64,000 bases of DNA, taken from IMG/VR virus record IMGVR_UViG_3300035698_026801; one strand, given 5' to 3'. This DNA comes from an uncultured virus (IMG/VR IMGVR_UViG_3300035698_026801). Taxonomy: Duplodnaviria > Heunggongvirae > Uroviricota > Caudoviricetes. Positions 22,741 to 58,891 of this stretch are shown here, in pieces. The notes beneath the pieces were generated by a model. It was not told where the DNA came from. It did no database searches and saw nothing but the letters and a program-made list of their open reading frames with translations. Both the position numbers and the translations under genes were made by a program. Positions within the stretch are counted from its first letter, which is position 1; every line of letters begins with the position of its first letter.

Positions 22741-22807
22741 TTTTAACCTTAAAGCTAAATCGCTTTAGATATATTTACTTTTCTTTATTTATATAGTTTT
22801 GCTTTTT
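22734..22807 (-). promoter_or_regulatory. Archaeal promoter plus leader, copy 1, at the strand switch
   Basis: 74-bp exact repeat of 13462-13535; TATATAAA. Confidence 0.8.
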
Positions 22808-22907: not shown

Positions 22908-23213
22908 ATGACGGAAAAAAATAGTAAAAATCTAAAAGAGCGCGATAACATTGTTTATGTTGGTAAAAAAAGTTTGAACGATTACGTAACAGCCGTTATG
23001 ACCCAATTCGGTCACGGAGAAACAGAAGTTCTACTCAAAGCTCGCGGAATTAATATTGTAAAAGCGGTATCAGTATCCCAGGTATTACAAAATAATGTAG
23101 CTATGGGCGTAATTGAAAAGGACGCTAAAACTGGCACAGATATTCTTGAATCTGACACTGGTACGAAGCCATTACGTGTTTCTGTATTAACGATTTACCT
23201 GGAGCGAAAATGA
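22908..23213 (+). CDS. albA: Alba DNA/RNA-binding chromatin protein
   Basis: VYVGKK..NDYVTAV....EVLLKARG.NI.KAV...RVSVLTIYL is the Alba signature. Confidence 0.85.
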   Translation: MTEKNSKNLKERDNIVYVGKKSLNDYVTAVMTQFGHGETEVLLKARGINIVKAVSVSQVLQNNVAMGVIEKDAKTGTDILESDTGTKPLRVSVLTIYLERK

Positions 23214-31138: not shown

Positions 31139-31586
31139 ATGAGCCAAGAAACGTGTTGGGAATGCGGAAAAGCGTACGCCAGAAATCAAATGTTTGATAT
31201 TCCCGTTTTCAAAAATGGATTTACTGTAAAATGGTGTTTGAATTGCGCAATGAAACAACTGGATTCAACTGAGTATCAGTTAGTTGATAAAGATTACAAA
31301 AAGCCTGCAATTCTTGATGTACATACAGAAGGCGTAAGAGATGAAAAATCAGAACAAATAGAGACATTTTTAAAAAAACATAAGTTTTATGAGATGAACA
31401 AAGATGTGTGGTGGTTAAAATGAAAATAGCCCAATACGACGTTAAACTAACGCGCCAATATTTACGACATTTAGGACTTTCACGCTATCAAGCGCGCAGA
31501 GTATATCAAAAGGTTCCGGAAAACTCGCAAGCCAGAAATTGTGTTTTGTGGCCCGAAATACGAAGTGTTTTGCAAGGGAGGCGAAA

Positions 31587-32411
31587 ATGAAATCAATTGA
31601 AGAATTCAGAAATAAAATAATCTGTGGTGATTGTCTGGAGGTTATGAAGGAGATTCCAGATAATAGTATTGATCTAGTTGTTACAAGTCCGCCGTATGAC
31701 AATTTACGAGAGTATGGTGGAATTAAATGGAACTTTGAGATTTTTACAAACATTGCAAATCAATTATTTCGAGTTTGTAAAACTGGAGGGGTTGTGGTTT
31801 GGGTTGTGGGTGATGCCACATTTAATGGAAGTGAAACTGGAACTTCATTTAAACAAGCATTATATTTCAAGGAGTGTGGTTTTAATTTGCATGATACTAT
31901 GATTTGGTATAAACATTCACCACCACTCACTCATAAAAGATACGAACAACATTTTGAATATATGTTTATTTTAGTTAAAAATAAAATTAAGATATTCAAT
32001 CCATTAAAAACTTTAAAATTATATCAAGATTCTAGAACAAATCATTTTATTAGGAGGGAGAAAGGAACCAAATCAGATTATGGGTTTTTTAAAAATTGTG
32101 ATGATAAAATAAAAGGAAATGTATGGGATATTCCAACAGGAGGAGGACATTGTACTAAAGATAAAATGGCATATAATCATCCTGCAATATTTCCTGAAAA
32201 GCTTGCAGAACAACATATTAAATCTTGGTCCAACGAACATAGTTTGATTTTAGATCCGTTTATGGGAAGCGGAACAACAATAAAGATGACAAAATTATTA
32301 AATCGTGATTTTATAGGCATTGATATTTCTGAAGAATATTGTAATATTGCTAGAACTCGGTTAAAGAAACAATCCGAAAGATTGGATAAATTTACTTTAG
32401 GTGGTAAGTAG
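31587..32411 (+). CDS. DNA N4-cytosine/N6-adenine methyltransferase (beta class)
   Basis: TSPPY, HPAIFP, LDPFMGSGTT. Confidence 0.92.
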   Translation: MKSIEEFRNKIICGDCLEVMKEIPDNSIDLVVTSPPYDNLREYGGIKWNFEIFTNIANQLFRVCKTGGVVVWVVGDATFNGSETGTSFKQALYFKECGFNLHDTMIWYKHSPPLTHKRYEQHFEYMFILVKNKIKIFNPLKTLKLYQDSRTNHFIRREKGTKSDYGFFKNCDDKIKGNVWDIPTGGGHCTKDKMAYNHPAIFPEKLAEQHIKSWSNEHSLILDPFMGSGTTIKMTKLLNRDFIGIDISEEYCNIARTRLKKQSERLDKFTLGGK

Positions 32412-32626: not shown

Positions 32627-33271
32627 ATGACAATTAAAATACTAAATCTATATGCTGGAATAGGCGGTAATAGAAAACTGTGGGACGGCGACATAGACGT
32701 TACGGCTATAGAACTTAATCCAGAAATAGCTAAGATTTATCAAGATTTCTTTCCACAAGATAATATTGTTGTATGTGATGCTCATCAATATTTATTGGAT
32801 CATTTTAACGAATTTGATTTTATTTGGAGTAGTCCCCCTTGCACCAGTCATACTTCATTTGCAAAGCTCTGTGCGCTTTCACAAGATATAAAAACAGGTA
32901 ATCATATTAGAAAACCAAAATATCCAGACTTAAAATTATATGAAGAAATTATTTTACTATCACATTTGTTTGAAGGTAAATTTTGTGTAGAAAATGTAGT
33001 TGGATATTATACTCCCCTCATAAAACCACAAAAGTTACAAAGACATTATTTTTGGACTAATTTTATTATACCCGTTAAAAAATTTAAATGTGATAATATA
33101 AAGTGGGGTAGAGTTTCTGAATGGGAAAAGAAATTAGGATTTAGTCTAGATGATAAAATTATTAATTCCAGAAAAGATCAAATATTACGAAATTGTGTAG
33201 ATCCAAAACTTGGGCTTCATGTTTTTAATTATGCTTTTAAAGAAAAGCAACTTACTTTGGGTGATCTTTAA
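32627..33271 (+). CDS. Short C5-type DNA cytosine methyltransferase
   Basis: LYAGIGG, SSPPC, VENV, RH, RNCV. Confidence 0.8.
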   Translation: MTIKILNLYAGIGGNRKLWDGDIDVTAIELNPEIAKIYQDFFPQDNIVVCDAHQYLLDHFNEFDFIWSSPPCTSHTSFAKLCALSQDIKTGNHIRKPKYPDLKLYEEIILLSHLFEGKFCVENVVGYYTPLIKPQKLQRHYFWTNFIIPVKKFKCDNIKWGRVSEWEKKLGFSLDDKIINSRKDQILRNCVDPKLGLHVFNYAFKEKQLTLGDL

Positions 33272-34541: not shown

Positions 34542-36452
34542 TTGGTGATCGAAATTGAAAAAAAACAAGAAATCAAATTTATCGACCTCTTCGGCGGAGT
34601 CGGAGGATTTCGACTTGGGCTTGAAAGGGCAGATTCAAGTAGTAGGGAACCTATATCCGAGCAAACACGAAGCGGGGAACATATACAATCCACAGGGGAT
34701 AAGTCCAACACTAAAATGCAACGGACCGAGACCGAATTCAAAGAATCAGGCACCAAAGATAAATTTAAATGTGTCTTCTACTCCGACATCGACAAATACG
34801 CAGTTCAAACCTACAATAAAAACTTTGGAGAAAATCATAAGCCAGAAGACATTAGGAATATTACAGCCGAACAAATTCCAAAACACGACCTTATCTGTGG
34901 AGGTTTTCCTTGCCAAAGTTTCTCGATTGCTGGAAAACGAAAGGGGTTTGAAGATACTAGAGGGACTTTATTTTTCGAAATTTGTAGAATTTTAAAACAA
35001 CATAAAACACCTTTTGTTCTTTTAGAAAATGTGAAAGGATTGTTAAGTCATGATGAAGGTAAAACTTTTGAAGTTATTATAGAGTCTTTAAATAGCTTGG
35101 GGTATATAGTAGATTATAGAGTATTAAATTCCAAGAACTTTGGAGTGCCACAAAATAGAGAGAGAGTGTTTATATGGGGAATAAATCTACCAAAATTAAT
35201 CGAACAAATAAAAGATGGTCAGAAAGAGAAAGAGCCTTTATTACTTCAAACTATAGAAAGTTGGGTGTTGCAGAGATTGCAAGACAACTTGGAAGAACTG
35301 AAAAAGCTACACGAACCAAAATCGAAAGAATTGGCATTAAATTGGATAATTTACAAAGAATTGGAAAGTATTGGACTTTTGAAGAAATCAAAAAACTTAA
35401 AAGAATTAGCAAAGAAAAAACTATTAAAGAGTTGGCAAGTGAATTTGACCGATCTTGGTCCTCAGTTTATAACAAAATCAAAGAACAACAATTTGAATGG
35501 AAAAGAAAAGTTACTAGAGAGCCAAGAACTACTTCAGATGGATATCTCCAATATAGACATGGAAAAAATAGAAACAAATTTGTTCATAGAGTCTTTATGG
35601 AAGATTATCTTGGACGAAAACTTTCAAAAGAAGAACGAATTCATCACATCAATTTTAAAAAAGATGACAACCGAATTGAAAACTTATTCCTATGTGAGTC
35701 TAGGTCACATCATTCTTTTGTTCATGGTTCTGGAGAGAAAATATTTCGAGAACTTTTCAGAAAGAGTTTTATCATTTTTGATAGAAATGGAGGAGAATAT
35801 ATATGGAAAGGTTGAACGGTCAGAAGAAAAAGCTACACTTAATGCGGTCATCAGTTCTGTGGTTTCTGGAACCAAAAGTGCAAACGAAATTATTGGACAT
35901 CTTGGAGGTGAACCCAGACAAAAAGTATTTCCTATCCGAGAAAGCAGTAAATCAATTAATAAGACACGAGAGTTTCCACAGCAAATTGCATCAACTCTCA
36001 CCACCGCAGACGCAAAAATCGGAAGAGGAATAAATATGATTCAACAATTGAATAACACAACAGAATTGGGGGGTTTCGAATCAACTAAACGAATCTATGG
36101 GGTAGAAGGTGTAGGACCAAGTTTAACTCATAAGTGTTGTGATTTGAAGGTTGCACCATTTATTGAAAATAAGAAAGTAACAGAAAGAAGTGGTGAATGG
36201 GGTTCTGGATACGCTGATTCGGCCTTTACTTTAAACTCTAGTTGTGGTCAAGATCAATGTGTTAATTCCATTCGAAGATTAACCCCTATAGAGTGCGAAA
36301 GATTACAAGGATTCCCAGATAATTGGACTGATACTTGTTCAGATAACCAACGATACAGACAAATGGGAAATGCTGTGACTGTGAATGTTATTCAGGTTAT
36401 TGCGGAGAGAATATTAGAATGTTTAGAGGTTAAAAATGACACAAAAAACTAA
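34542..36452 (+). CDS. C5 DNA cytosine methyltransferase with two apparent insertions; start uncertain
   Basis: LFGGVGG, GGFPCQSFS, LENV, PQNRERVF, RRLTPIECERLQGFPD, YRQMGNAV. Confidence 0.88.
   Translation: MVIEIEKKQEIKFIDLFGGVGGFRLGLERADSSSREPISEQTRSGEHIQSTGDKSNTKMQRTETEFKESGTKDKFKCVFYSDIDKYAVQTYNKNFGENHKPEDIRNITAEQIPKHDLICGGFPCQSFSIAGKRKGFEDTRGTLFFEICRILKQHKTPFVLLENVKGLLSHDEGKTFEVIIESLNSLGYIVDYRVLNSKNFGVPQNRERVFIWGINLPKLIEQIKDGQKEKEPLLLQTIESWVLQRLQDNLEELKKLHEPKSKELALNWIIYKELESIGLLKKSKNLKELAKKKLLKSWQVNLTDLGPQFITKSKNNNLNGKEKLLESQELLQMDISNIDMEKIETNLFIESLWKIILDENFQKKNEFITSILKKMTTELKTYSYVSLGHIILLFMVLERKYFENFSERVLSFLIEMEENIYGKVERSEEKATLNAVISSVVSGTKSANEIIGHLGGEPRQKVFPIRESSKSINKTREFPQQIASTLTTADAKIGRGINMIQQLNNTTELGGFESTKRIYGVEGVGPSLTHKCCDLKVAPFIENKKVTERSGEWGSGYADSAFTLNSSCGQDQCVNSIRRLTPIECERLQGFPDNWTDTCSDNQRYRQMGNAVTVNVIQVIAERILECLEVKNDTKN
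34555..34995 (+). CDS. Overlapping +1-frame polypeptide with a TRD-like module
   Basis: GGTGAT SD 5 nt before TTG; QVVGNL...GNIYNPQGISPTL resembles RIYGVEGVGPSL in the main frame. Confidence 0.55.
   Translation: MKKNKKSNLSTSSAESEDFDLGLKGQIQVVGNLYPSKHEAGNIYNPQGISPTLKCNGPRPNSKNQAPKINLNVSSTPTSTNTQFKPTIKTLEKIISQKTLGILQPNKFQNTTLSVEVFLAKVSRLLENERGLKILEGLYFSKFVEF
35174..35815 (+). CDS. HNH endonuclease with N-terminal Myb/HTH-like repeats, nested in the methyltransferase (+2 frame)
   Basis: WSERE and WTFEE repeats; FVHRVFME..LGRKL...E.IHHIN..KDDNRIENL....H. Confidence 0.8.
   Translation: MGNKSTKINRTNKRWSERERAFITSNYRKLGVAEIARQLGRTEKATRTKIERIGIKLDNLQRIGKYWTFEEIKKLKRISKEKTIKELASEFDRSWSSVYNKIKEQQFEWKRKVTREPRTTSDGYLQYRHGKNRNKFVHRVFMEDYLGRKLSKEERIHHINFKKDDNRIENLFLCESRSHHSFVHGSGEKIFRELFRKSFIIFDRNGGEYIWKG
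35803..36033 (+). CDS. Overlapping +1-frame peptide with a C5-MTase-associated LxDILE..KYFLSEK motif
   Basis: GGAGGAG SD; LLDILEVNPDKKYFLSEKAV. Confidence 0.45.
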   Translation: MERLNGQKKKLHLMRSSVLWFLEPKVQTKLLDILEVNPDKKYFLSEKAVNQLIRHESFHSKLHQLSPPQTQKSEEE

Positions 36453-39347: not shown

Positions 39348-39441
39348 ACCAGCCGAAACAGTATAATGCTTTCAGGCAGACAAGCAAGGGCTGTGCTAAA
39401 TGTCCTAAGCAAGTGTAAGTCCTGAACCTGCGGCACTTGGT
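39348..39441 (+). ncRNA. BHB-flanked intron-like RNA element 1
   Basis: ACCA-GCCG-AAA-CAG ... CTG-CGGC-ACT-TGGT; inner TTCAGG/CCTGAA stem. Confidence 0.65.
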
Positions 39442-39448
39442 AAGTATT

Positions 39449-39736
39449 ATGGAAACAAACAAAATAATTCACGGCGAATGCCTAGAAGTTCTTAAAACGA
39501 TTCCTGACAATACCTTTGATTCAGTTGTCACAGACCCACCTTATGGCTTATCTGCTGCAAAGAATAGTGGCAAAACTTCAAAAGGTGGATTTATGGGTAG
39601 CTCAGGAACGACAGCGATTGCGTGTCATAAAGAAGGATTTGATTATATTGGAATCGAGCGCGAAGAAGAATACGTTAAGATTGCAAAGGCGCGAATCGCG
39701 GCACAACCTCAACGTTTGGATAAATTTATTAAGTGA
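39449..39736 (+). pseudogene. Internally deleted beta-class N6/N4 DNA methyltransferase
   Basis: TDPPY joined almost directly to FMGSSGTT; central region missing; frame intact. Confidence 0.7.
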
Positions 39737-39841
39737 AGTTAAAAATAAACTTATTTATATTCCGCATACCAATTAAGTTACAAGGAATTCAGAACGCAGG
39801 GGCAATACAATAAGAGCAAGTTACATTGCTCTGGAGTAAAA

Positions 39842-40069
39842 ATGCAAGCAAAAGAACATATAATTACAGGAATAGTCGCTGCTTTAATAGCCACAATTTT
39901 TAACAACCTTCTAGGTGGTTCGTTAATTAATTTCTCATTTTCGACCATTTACGTATTAGTCACTACGGTTGTTATTGGTGTTGGTGTTGGTTTTGCAGTA
40001 CTCTATTTCGTTAATTTACGGAATGAGGAAAAAAATCAGAAAAGTTCAGCTAAACCTAGTAAAAGGTAA
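39842..40069 (+). CDS. Small two-TM membrane protein
   Basis: Hydrophobic; TTTATATT upstream. Confidence 0.6.
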   Translation: MQAKEHIITGIVAALIATIFNNLLGGSLINFSFSTIYVLVTTVVIGVGVGFAVLYFVNLRNEEKNQKSSAKPSKR

Positions 40070-40076
40070 AAAAATA

Positions 40077-41762
40077 ATGAAGAAGTTAAGTTGGATCATG
40101 TTAGTTTGTATGTTTTTAATTCCTTTAGTTTCGGCAATCCCAGACTATAATATTGTTTACGATTTTGATAATTTACCTATTAGTTCTAATCAAAATGTAT
40201 CGTTGGGTTACTTTACAGTGGCAGCATTGAATGAGTCTGTTTCAAATTTGAATATATTTTATTCCGATATTCCATTTAAACTCATTTTTTCTCCACAAAC
40301 CATCACTACATTAACCACAGATCTTGTTCGTGTTAATATTTCCGCAGAAACAACTTCTGCGACAACTGCCGGAAATTATTCGGGAAAGTTGTTTATTTCC
40401 TCAGATTCTGTAGCACAAAAGCAAGTTAATTTGAATATTGAAGTTCTAAAAGATGATTCATTTGTGGTAACTCATTCAGCGTTCATTACCACGTTAGATT
40501 CTGGATTATCTGGAATTTTTGGGAATATTACTATCAAAAACGACGGGAACATAAACCAACTTTTCACGATTTCCGTTGAAGGTACGATTTCTGAGTTAAT
40601 TACAACGGTTGACCAACTTTTAGTTTATAAGGGAACTTCAGATACTTTTTCAATATCATATTTAATTCCAAAAGATCAGGACTTATCAGAATATACTGGT
40701 CAAATAATAATTAATTCTGATCAAAATGAAACCAATCAAACAATTAATACCTCCATCACAATTAGAGATATCATCCCTCCAGAACTTATTTCTGCGAATT
40801 TTTCAGATGTTATGGCAACACAAATTAATGTTTTACAAGTGGAAACTATAGACAATGTTGCAGTTAAAAATGTTACGGCTGAAATTTATTACTTTGTAGA
40901 AGATGGAAATGATACTGCGCGTCATAATTTAAACAATATCACATTTACTAAGGTTTTAGATCGTAATCGATGGGATTATGATTTTGAAGATACAGAAGAT
41001 CTAATGTCATATTATATTGATGTTTATGTGCGCGATGAAGCCAATAATTTAAATATGACCACAAGGCAATTTAAGGTTATTGAATTGGAATCTTTGACTC
41101 ATGACACAGTTATTAAATTCCCTGCAGTAAAATATGGTGATTTTTCACATGTTATTGCGTTTAACATAGCTTATGAAACCTCAGTAAAGGTCTCAATTGA
41201 TTCTATGGAATATAATTACACGTGGGAGTTTGCTATTGAACGCCCAGATGGGAAGAAGAGGTATTTTGAAGACGCAGATGAATTTAAAACGTTTTCAGAT
41301 GTTGGAAATTACACATTAATGGTTAAAGGCGAGAAAGAAGGCGAATTTTATGGATCAATTAAGTTCGAATTAATTGATACACACAAATCTGTTGAGTTAT
41401 TAGAATTTTCTGGGAAGTTTATGAATTGTACGATTCCAAAAGAATTTAAAGATCTGGATTTTTATGGAGGTTCTATTGAGTTAGAGTTGCAAGACCGCGC
41501 AACTTGTGGAAATAATTCTTTTTATAGGTATATTATTGAGTATCCGATTGATAGCTATGTTGAAGGCGAACATAAATATATTGTCTCTTATAAGGGAGAA
41601 CTTGAAAAAGAGCAAAGTCATAGAGAAACCCTTGATCGCAAAGATTCTTCAATCGCAGGTAGAACTGTAGCATTGGTTTTAATGAGTTTGATGTTTATTA
41701 TATTTATTTTGTGGGTTGTTTATGCTATGATGATAAAACCGTACACATATTGGAGGCGTTAA
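40077..41762 (+). CDS. Surface glycoprotein-like protein with Ig-like domains and C-terminal TM
   Basis: Signal peptide; many NxS/T; C-terminal TM. Confidence 0.8.
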   Translation: MKKLSWIMLVCMFLIPLVSAIPDYNIVYDFDNLPISSNQNVSLGYFTVAALNESVSNLNIFYSDIPFKLIFSPQTITTLTTDLVRVNISAETTSATTAGNYSGKLFISSDSVAQKQVNLNIEVLKDDSFVVTHSAFITTLDSGLSGIFGNITIKNDGNINQLFTISVEGTISELITTVDQLLVYKGTSDTFSISYLIPKDQDLSEYTGQIIINSDQNETNQTINTSITIRDIIPPELISANFSDVMATQINVLQVETIDNVAVKNVTAEIYYFVEDGNDTARHNLNNITFTKVLDRNRWDYDFEDTEDLMSYYIDVYVRDEANNLNMTTRQFKVIELESLTHDTVIKFPAVKYGDFSHVIAFNIAYETSVKVSIDSMEYNYTWEFAIERPDGKKRYFEDADEFKTFSDVGNYTLMVKGEKEGEFYGSIKFELIDTHKSVELLEFSGKFMNCTIPKEFKDLDFYGGSIELELQDRATCGNNSFYRYIIEYPIDSYVEGEHKYIVSYKGELEKEQSHRETLDRKDSSIAGRTVALVLMSLMFIIFILWVVYAMMIKPYTYWRR

Positions 41763-41763
41763 A

Positions 41764-42198
41764 ATGCTTAAAGTTCCATTTTATATAAATTTAGCAACAG
41801 GAGAGGTTGGCAGTTATTTAGGAGATAGACCTAGTGATACGGCCAAAGAAATAATTCCAAGATATCGACCTATAAATAAGGTAAGAGGTTATTGGGATTC
41901 CAAAGATCCTATTCCGGATTATGCTAAACACATAATTCAGCCAACTAATTTAACATTGCCTGGAGTTCAGAAAAGTTATGTTGTAATTACAGAAGATTCC
42001 AACGGACAACATCCTTGGTTAGATAAGGTTTTGGCCCTAGACAAAAAAAGTATAGCGAAACTTAAAAAAGAAAATGATAAGTTAGAGCGAGATAACGAGA
42101 AGCTTAGAATGAAGATTAAAGAGTTAGAATCTCAAGAGAGTAAAAAAAGAACATCATTAACACCTTATGGTGGAATACCACCATTGGAGAGGTATTAA
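41764..42198 (+). CDS. Hypothetical protein with C-terminal coiled coil
   Basis: LKKENDKLERDNEKLRMKIKEL. Confidence 0.65.
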   Translation: MLKVPFYINLATGEVGSYLGDRPSDTAKEIIPRYRPINKVRGYWDSKDPIPDYAKHIIQPTNLTLPGVQKSYVVITEDSNGQHPWLDKVLALDKKSIAKLKKENDKLERDNEKLRMKIKELESQESKKRTSLTPYGGIPPLERY

Positions 42199-42199
42199 A

Positions 42200-43273
42200 A
42201 TGCCAATAGAAGATGATAGACAAGAATATACCGTGGCAGATCTTAAATCTGTAATAGAAAGATTAGATAACGAAATAATTACGCATGAAAATTATAGTTC
42301 ATCTTATGATTTTGTTATGGGTCGTAATTCTTTAGCAGAAAGCACCGCAGGACAAAAAACTGAACAAGCAAATGATTTAATTCGTGCAGTTGATGTAATG
42401 GATTCCGAAGAAGATCTTCAGTCACTTAAAGAAACAAGTCCAAGATTAAGAGACTTGGATGCAAAGAAAAATCAATTAATTAAGGTATTGCGTGAACTTT
42501 GTGTGGATCGAGTATTACAAACACAAATGTTAATTACTCAAGCGCACAAGCATAAAAAGGTTTTAGATGGAATCAGAGCTCAAAACATAAGTGCAGAATT
42601 GTTTAAGAATTTTAAAGTTTTTATGTCAGAACAGTATACATCGATTGATACCAGAAACAAAGAAATTTTAGAGTTCTTTAAAGAAATGATGAATGGTAAA
42701 ATGCGCTTTTTAGAGGAAAGAGATCAGAAAACATTTACATTAATGACCGAAGCCTTGTTAGCATTATCTAAATCCTTAAATAAAATTTCACCGGGAAGTG
42801 AAAAACAATTAGAGAGTAAAGTTAAAGAACTTATGAATCCAAATACATTAGATACTTCGTTGCATCAAAAACCCGTTATTCCAGAACCAACAATTAATTC
42901 AAATGAGTCAGTACCACAAAGTAATGTAAATGATTCAGTACCAACAAGTAATTCAAATGATGTAACACCACCATCACCCAATTTAAAGGGTTCTGATAAC
43001 GAAACACAGAAAAGTAGTAGTCCCGCACCAATAACTAATTCAAATGATCTATTACCAGTAATTAAACCAAATTTATCTGAACAGATTCCACAAAATTCAA
43101 CAGATAGTTTAAATTTAACTGAGAATCAAGCCAATGCTTTAAAGTTGATAGATTCTGGAATGGAAACTAAGGCAGAACTTGGAAAAGAATTAGAATTAAA
43201 TAAAGTAACTATTGGAGCGATTGTTTCACAGTTAAAATCTAAAGGATTGGTTGATGGTGATTGGGGCAAATGA
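42200..43273 (+). CDS. Coiled-coil protein with low-complexity linker and C-terminal wHTH
   Basis: LTENQANAL....TKAELGKELELNKVTIGAIVSQLKSKGLV. Confidence 0.7.
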   Translation: MPIEDDRQEYTVADLKSVIERLDNEIITHENYSSSYDFVMGRNSLAESTAGQKTEQANDLIRAVDVMDSEEDLQSLKETSPRLRDLDAKKNQLIKVLRELCVDRVLQTQMLITQAHKHKKVLDGIRAQNISAELFKNFKVFMSEQYTSIDTRNKEILEFFKEMMNGKMRFLEERDQKTFTLMTEALLALSKSLNKISPGSEKQLESKVKELMNPNTLDTSLHQKPVIPEPTINSNESVPQSNVNDSVPTSNSNDVTPPSPNLKGSDNETQKSSSPAPITNSNDLLPVIKPNLSEQIPQNSTDSLNLTENQANALKLIDSGMETKAELGKELELNKVTIGAIVSQLKSKGLVDGDWGK

Positions 43274-44092
43274 AAAGCTCCGCCATAATTATTAAAGGCG
43301 AGTTACAGACCGAAGTTTGTGGATCTATACCCAGTAAAGGCGATCCAAAGATAGTGTATAATGATAATTTGAGTTTTTTACCTTTTAATCCGTTTTATGT
43401 GAGCGAATCTGAAGTAAAGATTCATTTAAAACGAAGTTTTGGAAAAGGATGGTATCAAATAGTAGTATATGATGGTGCATTAGGTCCTAGGAGACCTTTT
43501 GGCACAAAAGGGATAAAGGTGGTTTAAGGTGGCCGAAATTGTAATTGCATTATATGTAACATTAATCCTTATTGGTATTTGGAATATTTTTGGAATATTT
43601 GTTGGAACTATTATTGGAAAAATTGCAGTTAGTGAAGAACGTGGCGGAGTATCCCTTTATTATATTATTGGAACGGCGGGGGTATTTCAATTAATTGGGC
43701 TTTTATTATTCCCATTTTTATTCGGCATAATTGATAAGGTGATTTGAAAATGAAAACGACAAAAATTATAACATATATAATTATTATTTTGTTTTTAGGT
43801 ATTTTAATGTATTTATTTAGGGGTATTTGGTGATTTAAAAATGATAGCATTAGAAACTTTAAAAAAGTTGTTTAACACGGATAAAACTGGAAATACTTAT
43901 TGTTTTTCATTAATATGTTGGACTAACGGACGTTGGAGTATTGTTGTTACTGATGATTGGTATAAATGGACGGATAACGCCACACCAAGATTGGATTATA
44001 CGTATTCCACACCATCAAAAGCTGTTAATGCTTTTTTAGCACATATAAAAAAGCATAACATAAATTTGAAAAGTCTACAAGAAAAAGATTAA

Positions 44093-44131
44093 ACCAGCCG
44101 AAACCAGTTAAGCTTTTCAATAAAAGCTTAA
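44093..44131 (+). repeat. BHB left half-site followed by AAGCTTTT/AAAAGCTT hairpin
   Basis: ACCAGCCGAAACCAG then TAAGCTTTTCAATAAAAGCTTA. Confidence 0.7.
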
Positions 44132-44210
44132 GCAAAACAACTATAGATAGGACTGATAGGATGGATAGGTTTATATATTTTGCAAACAAAGAATAATTAG
44201 GTGAAATAAA

Positions 44211-44558
44211 ATGAATGAATTAAATCAAGTAATGAATGAAGTTTTAACTGAATCTTTCAAAGAGGGAGATGAAAGAGAGAAATTTCATAGGAGAATAACA
44301 AAAGAAGCAGAAGAAGACAAACGGGATTTTTGGTTGGTTAAAAATGGATATGGTCAAATCCAACTATTGCCAGAAGGACATCAGATTATAACACATTTAT
44401 ATTCTAGGAACATAGAGGAATACAAGAGAAAAGGGTATATAAAAGTAGTTCCAAGAAAGTATGTCAAACTTTTGCTTGAAGACAAAAGAGCAGAAAGAAA
44501 TGCAGAGATAAAATATAGAAAAACCGTAAAAGAAGTTTTTCAGAGGATAAAGAAATGA
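44211..44558 (+). CDS. Hypothetical protein
   Basis: AGGTGA SD; TTTATATA upstream. Confidence 0.6.
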   Translation: MNELNQVMNEVLTESFKEGDEREKFHRRITKEAEEDKRDFWLVKNGYGQIQLLPEGHQIITHLYSRNIEEYKRKGYIKVVPRKYVKLLLEDKRAERNAEIKYRKTVKEVFQRIKK

Positions 44559-44668
44559 AGAAAGTTAAAATAGAACTTAGAGAGGATATTGTAATTAAAC
44601 TTCACAATATGAAAGAATTCAAAGAAACATATTCAGATGTTCTGGATCGTGTATTAAAAGGGAAATAA
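44555..44668 (+). CDS. 37-aa RHH/antitoxin-like peptide
   Basis: Manual translation MKKVKIELREDIVIKLHNMKEFKETYSDVLDRVLKGK. Confidence 0.5.
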   Translation: MKKVKIELREDIVIKLHNMKEFKETYSDVLDRVLKGK

Positions 44669-44887
44669 GGCGGCACTTGGTGATTTGAAAATGATAGATT
44701 ATACAAAAGAATTTGGTAAAAAATATAAAATTATTGAAGATGCAATTAAAGAAGCAAAAGTAGAGGAACGAGAGAAGGTTTTAATTAATGTAATGAATGA
44801 GTGTATGCGTAGTGAAAGTGAAACTAATTGTGCGATTTATAGTTGGGCTTGGGAACAAATTAAAGAAATAAAGGTGGTGATTTGAAA

Positions 44888-45523
44888 ATGAATACAGTAG
44901 AATTATTTTCAGGAACTAAAAGTTTTAGCAAAGTCGCTAAAGATTTAGGACATAAAACTTTTACAGTAGATAACAATAAAGATTTAAATCCAGATTTAGT
45001 TCTAGATTTATTATTATTAAGGTATTATTGTCCAGAACATATAGATATTTTATGGACTTCTCCTCCTTGTACTGCATTTAGTGTGGCTGCAATAGGTAAA
45101 AATTGGGATAAAAATACTAGAAAACCAAAGAGTGAAAACGCTTTACTCGGATTAAAACTAATTAATAATACAATTCAAATGATTTCAAAAGAAAATCCAA
45201 CATATTGGTTTATTGAAAATCCAAGAGGCATGCTTAGAAAAGTAATAGATCCTATATTTTTGAAATATGGAATCAAAAATTATAAACGATTTACAATAAC
45301 CTATTGTCAATATGGAGATACTCGAATGAAGCCAACAGACATTTGGACAAATTTTATAGAATGGAATTCAAGACCAATGTGTAAAAATGGAGATTCATGT
45401 CATATTTCTGCTCCAAGAGGATCTCCAACTGGAACTCAGGGGCTTAAAAATGCTAAAGAGCGAGGCGTTATTCCTCCAGCAGTATTCAAAGAAATATTCA
45501 AACAAATAAAACAAAGTGATTAA
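44888..45523 (+). CDS. Short C5-type DNA methyltransferase-like protein
   Basis: ELFSGTKS, TSPPC, IENP, YCQYG...KPTDIW. Confidence 0.8.
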   Translation: MNTVELFSGTKSFSKVAKDLGHKTFTVDNNKDLNPDLVLDLLLLRYYCPEHIDILWTSPPCTAFSVAAIGKNWDKNTRKPKSENALLGLKLINNTIQMISKENPTYWFIENPRGMLRKVIDPIFLKYGIKNYKRFTITYCQYGDTRMKPTDIWTNFIEWNSRPMCKNGDSCHISAPRGSPTGTQGLKNAKERGVIPPAVFKEIFKQIKQSD

Positions 45524-45719
45524 ATGAAGATTGCGGTCAATTGGTGATTTGAAAATGACAGATACGGATGATTTTAAAAATGAATTGATTGAATTAATGA
45601 AAAAGCATAATGTATCATTAGATAGAAACGAACAGTATGATGGAAATGAAGAATTTAGTGGATATTGTTACGATTTTATTGGTCCACATACAAGATTTAA
45701 TATAGAAAATATACTTTAA

Positions 45720-45810
45720 ACCAGCCGAAACCAGTATAAATAATGTGTATGGTAGTGCTACATAATGAAATATCCTGATGTTAGTAGATCAGGTACTGGC
45801 GGCACTTGGT
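45720..45810 (+). ncRNA. BHB-flanked intron-like RNA element 2
   Basis: ACCA-GCCG-AAA-CCAGTA ... TACTGG-CGGC-ACT-TGGT; inner CCTGAT/ATCAGG hairpin. Confidence 0.7.
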
Positions 45811-46247
45811 TAAGCCTTTTAATAAAGGCTTATGCGAAACTAAAAAGGTGATTTGAAAATGAGTATTATAATATGTCCACATTGTGGTAGAGGTAATGGA
45901 ATTACCAATTACTATGGTAAATGCTGTAAATATTGTGGTGGTCTAATTACTTCAGAATCAAAATCACAATTTATAAAGTAAACCAGCCGAAACTAAGCTT
46001 TTTAATAAAAGCTTAAGCAAAAGGAGGTGATAAATATGAGTCAAGATAAAGACCAAATTATTAAGTTATTAAAGCATTGGAATACCGAGAAGAATAAAGA
46101 AGAGATTTTTAGTGCTGTTAAAGAAGAATTATTCGATAGTGAAAATTGTGGAAGAGAATTTTTTGAAATAGAGAAGGATACAATTATTGAAACATTCCAT
46201 GCCACATTAAACGCAATCATCGAAGAAATAGAAAACCATTATAAATA

Positions 46248-46333
46248 ACCAGCCGAAACCAGTATAAATAATGTGTGGCACCCACAGTGCCCTATTTAGC
46301 CTCCACGTCTTCGTGGAGCTGGCGGCACTTGGT
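46248..46333 (+). ncRNA. BHB-flanked intron-like RNA element 3
   Basis: ACCA-GCCG-AAA-CCAG ... CTGG-CGGC-ACT-TGGT; inner GGCAC/GTGCC and CTCCACG/CGTGGAG hairpins. Confidence 0.7.
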
Positions 46334-46800
46334 GATTTGAAAATGAAATTTAATAAAAAAGATTTGGTTTTAATTAATCATACAAGAAAAGGTAAGTTTT
46401 ACGCTTTTGTAGAAAGAGATTTTGATACGATTGAAGAATGGTATCCAATAATTTTAGCTAGTAAAGAAGTTATAGGTATGAATACTGATTGGATAAGAGG
46501 AGAGAGTATTTCTTGTCGGGGATCTCTTTGTAAAATAGAAAAGGTGATTTGAAAATGACAAAAGTAAAAACAGAATTTAGAGAAATAAAAAGAAAAGGAG
46601 AATCTTATGACAAGTGTTTTTATAGATGGTATAAATACGCTTTAGAACTTGAGAATCTATGTATTAAATTAGCTTTTAAATTAGAGGATTCTGTTCAAAG
46701 AGTAACTATGAAACATAAACAAATGTGGATTGAAGCATTAACAGAATCAGAAGGAAATATAGATGAAGCAGAGAAGATTTATAATAAAAAACAAAAGTAA

Positions 46801-46908
46801 ACCAGCCGAAACCAGCAATGATGTGTCAAATTAAACGGAAGTAACATCCTAGGAAAAACACTTTAGTTAAATACTAGGTATTCAACGCCAACGTTGGCGG
46901 CACTTGGT
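46801..46908 (+). ncRNA. BHB-flanked intron-like RNA element 4
   Basis: ACCA-GCCG-AAA-CCAGC ... GTTGG-CGGC-ACT-TGGT (one G-U pair); inner CCTAG/CTAGG. Confidence 0.7.
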
Positions 46909-47048
46909 GATTTGAAAATGAAATTAAAAATTAAGATAGAAGGACAATCTAGAAAACAGGAGCTAGAACAGGGCGCGAAAGTATTGAAAGGCGTGTCTGA
47001 AACGTTAGATCTTATTGAAGAAATGTTGGAAGAAAAAAACAGAAGTAA

Positions 47049-47136
47049 ACCAGCCGAAACCAGACGTGGTATACGAGGATGTTTATTTGATCCGCTCGTT
47101 GAAAAATACGCAGTCCAGATCTGGCGGTTATATGGT
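47049..47136 (+). ncRNA. Relaxed BHB-like element 5 (4-nt 3' bulge)
   Basis: ACCA-GCCG-AAA-CCAGA ... TCTGG-CGGT-TATA-TGGT. Confidence 0.55.
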
Positions 47137-47146
47137 GATTTGAAAA

Positions 47147-47779
47147 ATGAAAAAATCTAGAAAATACATTTTAATTATTTTGATCATACTAGTTTTTGCA
47201 ATTGTTTTGGCATTATGGACTAAAGTTATTCCACCAATTGTGTTAGGAATTGTATTAGGTTATGCGCTTGTTATTGGTAGCATTGTGTTGATTATGAAGT
47301 TTTTGGGCGGTGGACACAAAGATAAAGATAAAGGAAAACGTTGGTCTGATGATTATGAACGAATAAATGAACTTTTATTACGTAAAAGAGGAATGATTGA
47401 ATTATCTATTGGGAGTGGAGACGGCGCACAATTTGGCAAAAGGAATTTTCCAGATCCTCTAACTAAGGAATCTAGAGATTTTCTTGTAGTTGTAGCAAAT
47501 AAAAAGTTAGATGGTGGGCGCGCAAGAGCAATTTATAATATAAAAACAGATGATATTGCAGATTTTAATGATTCTGTGGCATTATTTCGGGCGATTGAGG
47601 CAACAGGGAATTTATTTTATGGATTTAAACCAGATGAAGTTTCTTATGGTCTAGGGGTTACTGCTGAAGATGAACAAAGATATCGGTTAGATCGGGTTTA
47701 TGAAAGACTTGGACCAATTCCAATGATTGATACACCTCCACCAAAGAAGGAGGAAGAAAAGGATGACCCAGACAAGTAA
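47147..47779 (+). CDS. Membrane protein, probable partner of the ATPase
   Basis: Two N-terminal TMs; overlaps the ATPase gene. Confidence 0.7.
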   Translation: MKKSRKYILIILIILVFAIVLALWTKVIPPIVLGIVLGYALVIGSIVLIMKFLGGGHKDKDKGKRWSDDYERINELLLRKRGMIELSIGSGDGAQFGKRNFPDPLTKESRDFLVVVANKKLDGGRARAIYNIKTDDIADFNDSVALFRAIEATGNLFYGFKPDEVSYGLGVTAEDEQRYRLDRVYERLGPIPMIDTPPPKKEEEKDDPDK

Positions 47780-49019
47780 TGGTCGTTCTTACAATTATGG
47801 GTATACTGGTTTAAAAATTAGTCCATACGCATCTATGCGTGGATTATTCTATGAACCCCAAGTTCCAGAAATAGTTTATACTTTGGATCGTATTTTTATT
47901 GGTTGGGATAGATTAACGGATAAAGAAGTGTATATTAAGAATGATAAAGCCCTGAGAATCTTTATTTCTGCTCGAACTGGAGATGGTAAAACGTATTTAA
48001 TGAATGCCATACGTAGCCAAGTTCACGTAGCCGGAGCTTATTGTATATCACCAACAGACGTAAAACCTGATACTTATGCAAACAATAAGCCGATTCAGAA
48101 GTTTTTAGAGAGACTTAGAGAGGGTGAAAAACCACGTGCTGTTCCAACTATCACATATTTGCCGGTTTTTTTAATGAAGGAGTATAAAACAGGTATTCCA
48201 GAGTTTAATCACATTTTTCAATTCTCATATAAAGATGTTTCTGAGCGTGCTTTAGCACAGTTATTAGGCATTGGAGACAAAGGAACAACACAAAAAAATA
48301 TTGTAAGTATGTTACATAATAAAATGAGGAGCGGACAAATTTCCGATTTTAACGATATTTATGATTTTATAAATGAGTTAGAATTACATCCACAAACTAA
48401 AAAATCAATAAATCTAGCAATTGGTAAATTACAAGAAAATCGTGTATTAGGTCATAGATATTATGAGGATGTTATTTTTGCATTAAAAGAAGGGTTTGCA
48501 ATTTCTTTAAATTTATTGTATCATAAGAAATTTGTGGGTAATGGATTTCCAGAATCTTATGTAAATATATTTTGTAGTAAAATTACCGACGCGCTAAATT
48601 CTGGAGAATTAGACAAACGTAATTCAACATTTTTTTTCATTGATGAAGCACACGATTTTTGCCCCGCAGATGTTAATTTATCTAGTAAAGATAAAATTTT
48701 AGAATTAATTAATATGTATCGTGATCGTGGAGTCCGTCTCGTAATGGCTTCTCAATATCCTCAACAAATTCCAAATAAAGGTCCAGATGATATTTTGGGG
48801 CAAATGTCTCATTTCTTTATTTCTAAAACGGCCACTCCTGAAAATAGGAAGTATTTATTAACACAGGCTGATTTATATCGGTTTGGTGATATGCAACGGA
48901 ATAAATGGCCGAAGATTTTTGCCAAAATGAAAAAATATGATTGGTTATTGATAGATGTTAGAGAGAAATCTTATAAAATTGTGAGGCTTGCATCTCCGTT
49001 ATGTGCTCATAAAACCTAA
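47763..49019 (+). CDS. HerA/FtsK-superfamily P-loop ATPase (candidate genome-packaging or translocation motor)
   Basis: Walker A SARTGDGKT; Walker B FFIDEAH; R finger YRDRGV; ASQ. Confidence 0.8.
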   Translation: MTQTSNGRSYNYGYTGLKISPYASMRGLFYEPQVPEIVYTLDRIFIGWDRLTDKEVYIKNDKALRIFISARTGDGKTYLMNAIRSQVHVAGAYCISPTDVKPDTYANNKPIQKFLERLREGEKPRAVPTITYLPVFLMKEYKTGIPEFNHIFQFSYKDVSERALAQLLGIGDKGTTQKNIVSMLHNKMRSGQISDFNDIYDFINELELHPQTKKSINLAIGKLQENRVLGHRYYEDVIFALKEGFAISLNLLYHKKFVGNGFPESYVNIFCSKITDALNSGELDKRNSTFFFIDEAHDFCPADVNLSSKDKILELINMYRDRGVRLVMASQYPQQIPNKGPDDILGQMSHFFISKTATPENRKYLLTQADLYRFGDMQRNKWPKIFAKMKKYDWLLIDVREKSYKIVRLASPLCAHKT

Positions 49020-55102: not shown

Positions 55103-58100
55103 ATGAAAGTAAGATTATTATTATTTTTAGTAGGTATGATATTAGTTTCAACATTTGGTTCTGCACTTATTTTTGAAGCAGAGGGCTCTGTAAACACCAT
55201 ACCCACAGTTTCTACAGTAGTTTTATCCCCTACGATTTTATACGCCGACACGAATTTAATTTGTAATACAACAATTACAGATCCAGAAGATTCTACTTTT
55301 ACGGCATATTTTACTTGGTACAAAAATGATGCGAATATACTTTCTGGTTCAACTGGCAGCGTTGCAAATAACACAAATACAGAAATAGCGACTTTATTAA
55401 GTGGCAATTTTTCTAAGGGCGATGTTTTAAAATGTGAGATTGAAGCGTATGATACAAAAGATAATTCCACGGCGGTTAATTCATCCATAAAAACAATTAC
55501 GAATTCGATTCCAACTCTAGGTAATCCTACTTTAAATGATTATTCACCTTATACTTCAGATATATTAACTTGTACTCCTACAGGGTATTCTGATGCTGAT
55601 TCAGATGGTGCCACGTATTATTACAAATGGTATGATGATGGCGCTATTGTTGCAGATCAAGTTTCTTCCACACTAGATTTGGGCGTTGCAAATTTAGATA
55701 AAATAAACGAAATTAAGTGTTCTACAGTTGCTTCAGATGGTACTAGTAATGCAACTGCATGGACTAATTCCAGTGTCGCAACTATTCAAAATTCTATCCC
55801 TACTATTGGAACACCAATTTTAAATGATCTTTCGCCTTATACTTCAGATACTTTAACTTGTACTCCTCAAGATTATTCAGATTTAGATGGAGATGGGGCC
55901 ACTTCTTATTATAAATGGTATGATTCTGATGTAATAGTTGCTGGTCAAACTACGAGTACATTAGATTTAAGTGTGGCAGGATTGAATAAAGATGATACAA
56001 TTATTTGCTCTGTGATTGCAGATGATGGAACCTCAAATGCCACAGCATGGAAGAATACATCAACAGCTACTATTTTAAATTCTATCCCAACAATTGGAAC
56101 TCCAACATTAAGTACTTTAATTCCAAATACAGATAGTGTTTTAACGTGTACACCACACGATTATGCTGATTTAGATGGAGATGGTGCTACTCAGTATTAT
56201 AAATGGTATAATACAGGAGTTATAGTTGCAAGTCAAACAACTAACACTCTAGATTTAAGTGTTTCTGGATTGGACAAAGGGGATACAATTATTTGTTCTA
56301 ATATTGCAGACGATGGAACTTCAAATGCAACAGCATGGATAAACTCATCAGAAGCAACTATTGATAATTCTTATCCAATAATTTCAAATGTAAAATTAAT
56401 AATAACAGAATTTGGTGGAACTCAAGAAATTACATTAAATATAACCGCATCGGATCCAGACGGTATTGCGGATTTGGCTTACGGTAATTTTTCTACGGTT
56501 TATGGAGTTTTTTCAGCAGGAGTTTCTGAATTAGATATCCCAAATGGTTTAGTTCAAGTACAAACAATTTGGATTAATGATTCATCTAATGGGCAAGATT
56601 CATTTTTATTAAATTTTACGCTTTTAGAAGGAGCATTAACCAGTAATTCTTCTTACTCTCATACGTTAGCCTTACAAGGTATTGAACTTAATTCAACTTT
56701 GTATAATAACGGTTCAAGTTCTATTTCATATGACATAACAGCATACACTCCTCCCTCAGGAGTATTAGATGGCGGTGGTACGTTCACAGGGACTGCCACC
56801 GCATTATCTACGAATTATTTGTATAGTAATTGGCATGGAGATTTTATCACTTTAGAAGATACAGCTCTTGAAGGTCAAACGGAAAATGCCACAAAATTAC
56901 ACACAGAATCTACACAATATCTTTTGAATACCACACATTTAAATGCTACCAACTCTCAGGCGTTTACATTTGTTGGTGTTGATATTTCTGCTGAATGTAC
57001 CGAGACCATTTCTGCGGATGTAGGCGCTGGAGCCACTAAAATTACAACCACATGTGACACAACAGAGTACACGGTGGATACAATTGACACATATACCTCG
57101 GCTGAGTTGTTAGATTCCGCCACAGAGTCAACATTAGACACACAGTATATTTACAAGTATAGATGGATCAACAACACGGGAAGTATTGGTTTTACTAATG
57201 TGTCTATGGCAACTGCAACTATTTCAGGAACTTGTTTAAACTGTGAGGTACGTTACAATTCTTTAACTGATGGGCAAAATTCTCAACAATTTTATAACGC
57301 ATCTTCTACTTGGATTCCATATACAGAAGGGACTTGGAAGCAAGATACAACAGAAATAACAGAAGCCAATGGTATTTCATATAATACAAAGAATTTGAGT
57401 GCTTATAATAACCACTCTAGTATTGATTTTACAGGCGTTGTTTTAAATTTAGCAAATAAAACTAGTTGGACGTGTGATCCAGTCATTACAGGTACTATTA
57501 CGTCTACTGGTTGGTTAAATATTACTCAAAGCAATAATTGTTCAAAATCCAATGCTTTGACATTTGCTGAGACTTATCATGAATTACTCGATTCAGAAGG
57601 TATTATGAATGAATCAAATAGTTTGAATATTACTGTGACAATAAATAATACCGATGATGTAGCTTACACAAATGTTAAAGCGAATTTTACAACAACGTAT
57701 CCAAATAATGATATTGTAAGGTATACAAATACTTCTCAGAATATCTACTCCAATTTGAACATATTGGCAAGCACCGAAACAAATCACTCATATACTGCAA
57801 CTGGGATCGTAATAGATCAACTATCCGCTAATGACCTTGGAGGGTGTGCTACAGGCTATGTTAATTACGGCGCTTATTGTCGAAAGGTAGTTGATACTTC
57901 TACTGGTGGAAAATTCTATTATTATGAATATTATTTTAACGTAACGCATAACGTGACAAATAGTGTGGATTTAATTCATGAAATTGCTAAAACTAGTTTA
58001 ACAGATTGGTCTGGAAGAAGCGGCGAAACCTATAATGTAAATGGAAGTGCGATTGATATGTCCATTTCTGAAGATTTAGTTTCAGTTAATCTTACTATTG

Positions 58101-58891
58101 GAGATTCTCATTCAACATCTTCTTCATCTGAAGGAATTTGGTATTTATATTTAAATTATTTTAAATCAGGAACATCTCCTGGAGGTGGAGGAGGAAGTGG
58201 TAGCAGTACACCAACGGCACCAATAAATCTGACAACACTTGGAGAGCCAGTAAAAGTCTTTGAGTTAGAAACAGATTCGGCATTAAATTTATCAGGATAT
58301 CCTGGACAAACGATTGATTATAAACAATTTGTTATTAAAAATTTATTAAGTGAAGAAATAAATGTTTCTTTAGTGCTTTTAGAAGGCCCCGCATGTGCTT
58401 GGATCACATTTACAATGGAAGAAGAAGGATTAAAATCACTTGATGGATATATTATTTCTGCGCCAGGAGGAACAACTAGATCTGGCGTTTTATATGTAAC
58501 TGAAAAAATAGAAATTCCAAAGAATGTTACGATTAAAGATACAAAAGGCTGTAGATTTTTAGTTTCTGCAGCTAACGGATATTCGGAAGAATTTGAATAC
58601 CAAATTACAATTAAGGAAGGATTAGGTAGCGATATTCAAGCCAGTTTTACATCATTTTTTATGAGAACTATAGATTTTGGTGATGGATTGTGCATCGGAT
58701 CTTGGGGCGCAATGTTTGGTGAAGAAGAAGAATGTACTTTCAGATTATTTGAAGGTGTCAGATTTAAAGTTTGGCACATTTTCGCAAGTGGTTTGGGACT
58801 AATTTTCACCATAGTGTTATTTTGGTGGTTGATTAGATATGTTAAAGATAAAAAATCAGGGATTCCAGGTTGGATTAGTGGTTTGAAATAG
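55103..58891 (+). CDS. Large surface glycoprotein-like protein with tandem Ig-like repeats and C-terminal TM
   Basis: Three ~97-aa repeats NSIPTIGTP...LTCTP..Y.D.DGDGAT.YYKWY (~55500-56370); SPGGGGGS linker. Confidence 0.85.
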   Translation: MKVRLLLFLVGMILVSTFGSALIFEAEGSVNTIPTVSTVVLSPTILYADTNLICNTTITDPEDSTFTAYFTWYKNDANILSGSTGSVANNTNTEIATLLSGNFSKGDVLKCEIEAYDTKDNSTAVNSSIKTITNSIPTLGNPTLNDYSPYTSDILTCTPTGYSDADSDGATYYYKWYDDGAIVADQVSSTLDLGVANLDKINEIKCSTVASDGTSNATAWTNSSVATIQNSIPTIGTPILNDLSPYTSDTLTCTPQDYSDLDGDGATSYYKWYDSDVIVAGQTTSTLDLSVAGLNKDDTIICSVIADDGTSNATAWKNTSTATILNSIPTIGTPTLSTLIPNTDSVLTCTPHDYADLDGDGATQYYKWYNTGVIVASQTTNTLDLSVSGLDKGDTIICSNIADDGTSNATAWINSSEATIDNSYPIISNVKLIITEFGGTQEITLNITASDPDGIADLAYGNFSTVYGVFSAGVSELDIPNGLVQVQTIWINDSSNGQDSFLLNFTLLEGALTSNSSYSHTLALQGIELNSTLYNNGSSSISYDITAYTPPSGVLDGGGTFTGTATALSTNYLYSNWHGDFITLEDTALEGQTENATKLHTESTQYLLNTTHLNATNSQAFTFVGVDISAECTETISADVGAGATKITTTCDTTEYTVDTIDTYTSAELLDSATESTLDTQYIYKYRWINNTGSIGFTNVSMATATISGTCLNCEVRYNSLTDGQNSQQFYNASSTWIPYTEGTWKQDTTEITEANGISYNTKNLSAYNNHSSIDFTGVVLNLANKTSWTCDPVITGTITSTGWLNITQSNNCSKSNALTFAETYHELLDSEGIMNESNSLNITVTINNTDDVAYTNVKANFTTTYPNNDIVRYTNTSQNIYSNLNILASTETNHSYTATGIVIDQLSANDLGGCATGYVNYGAYCRKVVDTSTGGKFYYYEYYFNVTHNVTNSVDLIHEIAKTSLTDWSGRSGETYNVNGSAIDMSISEDLVSVNLTIGDSHSTSSSSEGIWYLYLNYFKSGTSPGGGGGSGSSTPTAPINLTTLGEPVKVFELETDSALNLSGYPGQTIDYKQFVIKNLLSEEINVSLVLLEGPACAWITFTMEEEGLKSLDGYIISAPGGTTRSGVLYVTEKIEIPKNVTIKDTKGCRFLVSAANGYSEEFEYQITIKEGLGSDIQASFTSFFMRTIDFGDGLCIGSWGAMFGEEEECTFRLFEGVRFKVWHIFASGLGLIFTIVLFWWLIRYVKDKKSGIPGWISGLK

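Follow-up and report, generated by a model that had tools for sequence, protein, structure and literature searches.

Why should a stretch of viral DNA carry, between its genes, a series of small cassettes with the same ends and different interiors? The question is raised by the uncultured virus record IMGVR_UViG_3300035698_026801 (Caudoviricetes), of which 64,000 nucleotides (nt), here called the window, were analyzed. An earlier note, made from the sequence of the window, had pointed to five elements between positions 39348 and 47136 and had proposed that they are bulge-helix-bulge (BHB) structures, which the tRNA-splicing endonuclease EndA of an archaeal host would cut out of the viral messages as small circular RNAs. 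On following this up, we find the interpretation partly supported and the structure itself well supported. The cassettes are best read as coding-strand RNA elements of an archaeal virus or other mobile element, each 0 to 4 nt past a stop codon.

Arms, register, and pairing of the cassettes

Each cassette lies between a left arm, ACCAGCCGAAAC (12 nt), and a right arm, GGCGGCACTTGGT. The left arm has seven exact copies in the window, all on the + strand, which is the coding strand, starting at 39348, 44093, 45720, 45982, 46248, 46801, and 47049. With up to two mismatches allowed there are 13 matches, compared to a mean of 2.07 in shuffled sequence, and 13 was reached in none of 100 shuffles. The right arm is exact at 44669, 45798, 46321, and 46896, carries one mismatch at 39429, and is degenerate in the copy at 47049 (CGGT-TATA-TGGT). 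Inspection of the sequence confirmed the five elements of the earlier note at their coordinates and showed the family to be wider: position 44093 has a left arm and hairpin, position 44669 an orphan right arm, and position 45982 a solo left arm with hairpin. The features are as follows, with the score of a covariance model given in bits for the full cassettes.

39348..39441, + strand: full cassette of 94 nt, of which the payload makes up 70 nt, with TGCGGCACTTGGT as its right arm; inner helix of 3 base pairs (bp), one pair fewer than the others; 61.3 bits
44093..44104, + strand: left arm directly past the stop of gene 43841-44092; a hairpin comes next and the right arm is not nearby
44108..44131, + strand: palindromic T-rich hairpin, copy 1 of 3, TTAAGCTTTT-CAAT-AAAAGCTTAA, read directly; possibly a transcript end
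44669..44681, + strand: orphan right arm GGCGGCACTTGGT directly past the stop of open reading frame (ORF) 44555-44668, running into the GGTGATTTGAAAATG of gene 44691
45720..45810, + strand: full cassette of 91 nt, the best-folding copy, inner helix of 6 to 7 bp; a hairpin follows; 92.2 bits
45811..45835, + strand: palindromic T-rich hairpin, copy 2 of 3, directly past the right arm of the 45720 cassette, read directly
45982..45993, + strand: solo left arm directly past the stop of gene 45853-45981
45994..46018, + strand: palindromic T-rich hairpin, copy 3 of 3, directly past the solo left arm, read directly
46248..46333, + strand: full cassette of 86 nt, starting on the final A of the upstream TAA; right arm continues into the gene 46343 ribosome-binding site; 70.8 bits
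46801..46908, + strand: full cassette of 108 nt with a G-U pair in the inner helix; right arm continues into the gene 46918 ribosome-binding site; 66.7 bits
47049..47136, + strand: degenerate cassette of 88 nt with a G-U pair in the central helix and a 4-nt 3' bulge, TATA; right arm continues into the gene 47147 ribosome-binding site; 52.2 bits

Folded alone, all five full elements have as their minimum-free-energy structure a 4-bp outer helix, the 4-bp central helix GCCG:CGGC, and an inner helix. The left arm reads ACCA-GCCG-AAA and the right arm CGGC-ACU-UGGU, with ACCA pairing to UGGU in the outer helix. One bulge, AAA, follows GCCG on the 5' strand and the other lies on the 3' strand, each being 3' of the central helix on its own strand. 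A 4-nt helix between two 3-nt bulges is how the BHB motif is defined in the parts of the two published accounts used here (PMC7714728, PMC6379350), and the geometry of the cassettes matches that definition, as the earlier note had held, in four of the five window copies and in a sixth cassette found on metagenome contig L082. The strict register, 4 bp between two 3-nt bulges on opposite strands, had been described for the window elements; it breaks down at 47049, where the 3' bulge has 4 nt and the central helix contains a G-U pair. The handedness of the bulges is, by our derivation, that of the tRNA intron at position 37/38.

The inner helices, of 3 to 7 bp, are specific to each copy. In the window they are CAG/CUG, CCAGUA/UACUGG, CCAG(U)/(G)CUGG, CCAGC/GUUGG, and CCAGA/UCUGG, and in L082 CCGAU/GUCGG; the 39348 copy has lost one whole base pair, the left C and the right G both being gone. 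In an alignment of the six copies fitted to the model, 90.9% of 77 cells pair, compared to 20.8 to 55.9% with the partners slid, and these figures are conservative because the fitted alignment mis-registers 39348 and 47049. Two-sided changes occur at three inner-helix pairs, which is in line with the covariation reported for the inner stem. The changes run from A-U to G-C and from G-C to G-U or A-U, with four pair types at the fifth position. The covariation score for these six sequences is 0.179, against 0.118 +/- 0.028, and was reached by 10 of 500 shuffles. The helices hold five G-U or U-G pairs on the + strand, and these positions are A-C mismatches on the - strand, so that either sense RNA or the top DNA strand is favored as the folding molecule. 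A family that keeps its register while its interior changes is not the product of chance. The covariance model built from the six copies, a search that the earlier note had put forward, recovered those six, L082 among them, and no further copy in the window; the next match scored 14.4 bits (E 0.053).

Between the arms, the payloads are unrelated apart from the first 18 nt common to 45720 and 46248. That the payloads differ had been said before; that they fold into hairpins is borne out only in part, with whole-element folding z-scores of -0.25, -3.03, -3.05, -0.48, and -1.52 for the five window elements in order. No convincing complementarity of a payload to the window or to L082 was found, the best non-self matches being 13 to 17 nt long with E values from 0.05 to 46. 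Two identities for the payloads were considered and dropped. A C/D box small RNA housed in an intron, as in tRNA-Trp introns, would have box C close to the 5' end of the payload and box D close to the 3' end, and a C-like box (RUGAUGA) was seen in two of six payloads and CUGA in two of six, never both in one. A nonautonomous transposon of the miniature inverted-repeat type is disfavored in that the payloads share no internal sequence beyond the 18 nt in two copies and no direct repeats flank the arms.

The position of the cassettes relative to genes is regular. An in-frame stop codon is abutted or overlapped by six of the seven left arms, in keeping with the proposed start at the upstream stop; the exception is 47049, with an out-of-frame TAA and an ORF, 46894-47160, that continues through the element. 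At the other end, three of the five right arms share 3 nt with the GGTGA of the following gene and run into GGTGATTTGAAAATG, as had been noted, but GGTGATTTGAAAATG is also the start context of many element-free genes (families D14, D16, and D17), and the element proper is therefore a stretch inserted before a standard ribosome-binding site. Neither 39348 nor 45720 is followed by a GGTGA site. Genes and elements alternate in an array across 45.5 to 47.2 kilobases (kb). The hairpin TAAGCYTTTT...AAAARGCTTA is directly downstream of three arms, namely the left arms 44093 and 45982 and the right arm of the 45720 cassette. From the left arm at 44093 to the right arm at 44669 the distance is 589 nt, with a hairpin, an A/T-rich box, and ORFs 44211-44558 and 44555-44668 between; these arms could pair in the outer and central helices with only two inner pairs, a relaxed form of the BHB. 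For the orphan arms (44093, 44669, and 45982) the best reading is that they are remnants of deletions, and the identical arms are likely sites of homologous recombination between copies.

Proposed cleavage by host EndA and rival explanations

EndA recognizes the BHB shape regardless of sequence and cuts after the second nucleotide of each bulge. If both arms of a cassette lie on one transcript in an archaeal cell and the fold forms, the EndA of the host would cut both bulges, and the RtcB ligase would join the flanks to give ...UAA-ACCAGCCGAA|UUGGUGA... and close the excised piece into a circle, leaving a shorter intergenic region and a small circle. By this cut rule, the predicted excised lengths are 79, 76, 71, 93, and ~72 nt for the window copies and 92 nt for that of L082. 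While uncut, the GGU of the downstream GGUGA would be held in the outer helix at three of the five sites; after cutting, only a weak 4-bp hairpin would be left over the ribosome-binding site. The cassettes could thereby act as a gate on translation of the downstream gene, yield stable small RNA circles, or do both. That the cassettes are host EndA substrates yielding circles of 71 to 93 nt is a tentative reading, to which we would give somewhat less than an even chance. Its main uncertainties are the co-transcription of the arms, for which a polycistronic mRNA is assumed, and the formation of the fold in vivo.

A more far-reaching version, which we regard as a long shot, is that the host EndA and RtcB carry out alternative splicing of a viral operon and that the payload circles are stable small RNAs aimed at the host. 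Such splicing is conceivable since any left arm is able to pair with any right arm downstream of it. Short pairings would excise the noncoding circles of 71 to 93 nt, and long pairings, such as 44093 with 44681 (589 nt, two ORFs) or 45982 with 46333, would excise whole cistrons as circles with their own ribosome-binding sites, which might be translated. Arms of separate transcripts could also be joined in trans, as happens with split tRNAs.

The presence of EndA in the host is plausible because the host is probably an archaeon. The main evidence for this is a gene at 22908-23210 (+ strand) with a predicted Alba domain (PF01918, E 4.5e-13, 49.2 bits against a cut-off of 25), whose nearest Atlas clusters are 92 to 100% Archaea. 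For a HerA/DUF87 ATPase (47727-49016), structural neighbors are mostly archaeal in 9 of 10 rows, several of them from DPANN phyla, and a word-indexed search returned no homologue. The 597-amino-acid (aa) protein at 39969..41759 (+ strand), next to the 39348 cassette, has a single homologue among 5.8 billion clusters, 67% identical. This is a COG1470-family protein that NCBI names as coming from a metagenome-assembled genome of Candidatus Heimdallarchaeota, on a 5.8-kb contig; as the link comes from a short binned contig, it is a lead and not proof.

Several observations weigh against cleavage by EndA. The evidence for an archaeal host is indirect, and the feature-based nearest Atlas clusters of the HerA/DUF87 ATPase are bacterial. 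With 60-nt flanks, the probability of the central helix ranges from 0.09 to 0.99, and in a 1.6-kb context the helix is kept only in 45720 (0.83), being at 0.00 in the others. A loose scan for the geometry found 171 and 143 sites on the two strands, compared to 133 to 153 in five shuffles of the + strand, and since this is no enrichment, BHB shape alone is no evidence. The statistics are thin, with only six distinct full copies. The outer helix is invariant and only the degenerate copy at 47049 shows any change in the central helix, so that 8 of 13 pairs are without covariation. Such invariance of the arms is itself left unexplained by EndA, which needs shape only; letter-perfect arms around unrelated payloads suggest gene conversion or an additional, sequence-specific reader. 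The T-rich hairpins at 44108, 45811, and 45994 may end transcripts inside the array, and some arms may therefore never meet a partner on one RNA. Finally, the eight sequencing runs that contain parts of the region, labeled salt lake metagenome, are all recorded as DNA, and contigs at least 99% identical to the region in the four runs compared are likewise all DNA contigs.

Other explanations start from the same features. The cassettes might be structured RNA that is never cut, the BHB likeness being incidental: a helix between the nucleotides after the stop and the next ribosome-binding site would couple or gate translation, a terminating ribosome melting ACCAGCCG and freeing the downstream GGUGA, or else the helix would protect the message. 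This would suit the six of seven left arms at or over an in-frame stop and the three of five right arms that reach into the next gene's GGTGA, but it has no role for the 39348 and 45720 cassettes, which are without a downstream GGTGA site, the latter being followed by a hairpin instead. GGTGATTTGAAAATG is moreover used by many genes without the element, and neither the retention of a variable payload of 60 to 85 nt nor the exact 3-4-3 register is explained. As EndA goes by shape, it would be expected to cut a fold of this kind in any archaeal cell, and we consider uncut RNA rather unlikely. We regard a role in transcription as improbable. Here, the left arm (CCGAAAC) and the A/T-rich beginning of the payload, which reads TATAAATA in two copies, would together form an archaeal promoter of B recognition element (BRE) and TATA box, with the hairpins as terminators, giving each small gene its own promoter and structured leader. 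CCGAAA resembles what we take to be archaeal BRE consensus sequences, CCAGTATAAATAATGTGT is common to 45720 and 46248, CAGTATAAT occurs in 39348, and TTTATATA lies within 44093-44681, 41 nt upstream of the ATG at 44211. However, a transcript that starts past the left arm would lack one side of the compensated left-right pairing, the cassettes at 46801, 47049, and in L082 have no TATA-like box directly after the arm, and A/T-rich words are common at the 33% guanine-plus-cytosine (GC) content of the window. Scanning for bacterial promoters (sigma-70: 34 found, 39.1 expected) and terminators is uninformative on this point.

An explanation at the level of DNA seems unlikely to us too. In it, the arms would be modules through which co-infecting elements acquire, lose, and exchange small genes, either by homologous recombination, as with phage linker or PeSL-type sequences, or through some site-specific recombinase acting on a folded single strand, as with integron attC sites, which the earlier note had named as its alternative. 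Perfect arms around unrelated payloads, the gene-element-gene array, orphan arms that resemble recombination scars, and the same arms in the otherwise unrelated element L082 are what this would produce. In addition, a 509-nt contig of run X3 joins the right arms 46319 and 46895 over 31 common letters, without the two genes of 46343-46800 and the payload of 46801. The word size of the Logan assembly is 31, and because the joint spans exactly 31 letters it is perhaps an assembly artifact, and otherwise a real deletion variant. Homologous recombination, however, needs no pairing of left with right, yet the inner helix is compensated. The cassettes resemble attC sites in forming an imperfect inverted repeat, conserved at its ends and variable in its center, in their place immediately past the stop of each promoterless cassette, and in having bulged bases that define the active strand. 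But attC sites have single extrahelical bases on one strand and core boxes GTTRRRY/RYYYAAC, whereas the cassettes have 3-nt bulges on opposite strands, show no such cores, and contain wobble pairs that favor the top strand. Among the 114 ORFs of the window, which is part of the genome, no integrase, recombinase, or transposase domain was found at E <= 0.001-0.01, and a weak HTH_Tnp_1 match below the cut-off is the sole hint of a recombination function. The attC alternative is thus the weaker one. These readings are not exclusive of one another or of EndA cleavage, and the arms may recombine as a by-product.

A second carrier and the genomic surroundings

The only relatives that we found are three metagenome contigs, L082-L084. 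These carry one identical cassette, whose arms and ribosome-binding site are those of the window copies; its payload is a different one and its inner helix is compensated. The L082 arm begins 4 nt past the stop of a 28-codon ORF. Otherwise L082 and the window have one 54-residue stretch in common and nothing else, and the cassette is thus present in two different mobile elements. L082 resembles a small virus or plasmid in its own right, from the same community; on its - strand, at 1340-2020, it encodes a P-loop ATPase (GQTGTGKS), and it also has several membrane proteins.

Broader searches extended the family no further. In IMG/VR, a 15-mer of the left arm gave 79 loci with a single match each, none with a right arm, and both arms together gave no match. 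The right arm with its ribosome-binding site gave 29 IMG/VR loci, all in unrelated contexts and mostly coding; at one of them, on a contig of 55% GC, a GCCGAAA heptamer lies ~780 nt upstream. Neither the 597-aa protein nor an alignment of two sequences of a 71-aa protein had relatives in protein scans of IMG/VR. Two matches in bacterial genome contigs of 60 to 64% GC were treated as chance. Phage records yielded only methyltransferase matches of ~70 nt in three Bacillus phage records, and a plasmid collection yielded no match.

The window uses the standard genetic code, and its genes are small, closely packed, and almost without recognizable families. Over the whole window, Rfam gave no match at or above the gathering threshold, and ARAGORN found no tRNA or tmRNA gene and no tRNA cloverleaf.

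Repetition is also seen outside the cassettes. Between 12700 and 22600, on the - strand, ~18 paralogous ORFs of 70 to 100 aa start with MGKIKGW and end in ...YMR(S/A/E)HP(R/N)G, and a second set of at least eight genes starts with MA(K/T)TTVKAHRRNGK(V/I)VK; Pfam has no family for either set. An exact direct repeat of 74 nt (13462-13535 and 22734-22807), which holds a TTTATATA-like box, flanks this block. Five DNA methyltransferase genes or fragments, of the N6/N4 and C5 types, lie at 31539-32408, 32627-33268, 34542-36449, 39437-39733, and 44882-45520. Three of these ORFs are short, and for the one of 99 aa the match is confined to the C-terminal end of the Pfam N6_N4_Mtase profile. In the methyltransferase region, four genes (31539, 32395, 32576, and 33255) are preceded by a repeated leader, …TGGTATTTTGTGTTTTGCAAGGGAGG…ATG, that is unrelated to the BHB cassettes. 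Three tandem repeats of 288 nt, at 55564-56399 and with 68 to 77% identity to the reference copy, lie within the 1262-aa ORF 55103-58891.

Known systems and what the cassettes would mean

The closest parallels to the proposed cleavage by EndA between viral genes are cellular. According to the portions of PMC7714728 used here, EndA removes BHB introns from the 5' untranslated region (UTR) of Haloferax volcanii HVO_1309 and from crenarchaeal cbf5 mRNA, and the HVO_1309 BHB is cut in vitro, with its 46-nt piece recovered as a circle in vivo; an effect of this intron on expression of the downstream gene is also discussed. These are the only archaeal mRNA BHB introns reported in those portions, both at single cellular sites (PMC7714728). 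Like these introns, the cassettes would be strict BHB structures in mRNA, outside tRNA and rRNA. They differ in number and layout, with five full copies and three orphan arms in 8 kb, placed between cistrons, and with identical arms around unrelated payloads; and the HVO_1309 and cbf5 introns were shown by experiment, while the cassettes are a multicopy family read from sequence alone. Among the papers that we screened by title and the opening of the abstract, none described BHB introns or EndA processing in the messages of archaeal viruses.

The likeness extends to stable RNAs. Introns at position 37/38 of pre-tRNAs and the processing stems of pre-rRNA have the same 4-bp helix and two 3-nt bulges, placed on each strand to the 3' side of the helix, and the predicted cut ends of a cassette, once joined, would give a 4-bp stem and 7-nt loop, as in an anticodon arm. 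The loop, GCCGAAU, nevertheless lacks U33, a tRNA feature; there is no tRNA body by ARAGORN and no Rfam family, and the flanks are protein coding. In function, a viral parallel is offered by phage T7, in which bulged hairpins between genes of the polycistronic message recruit host RNase III. Like the cassettes, these are conserved intercistronic hairpins, and under EndA cleavage both would recruit an RNA-processing nuclease of the host. The analogy is one of function only, as T7 has a bacterial host, another enzyme, and another shape, and nothing is excised or circularized.

If host EndA does process the cassettes, this would be the first virus or plasmid to place a whole family of BHB structures between its genes, a mobile element that takes over the tRNA-splicing machinery of its host to process messages and make circular RNAs. 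It would provide a compact natural system for studying protein-dependent splicing of archaeal mRNA, the origin and spread of BHB introns, and the function of circular RNAs, and the cassettes would be portable units for circular RNA production. Should the host be an Asgard archaeon, as one homologue hints, the finding would also bear on RNA processing in the closest prokaryotic relatives of eukaryotes.

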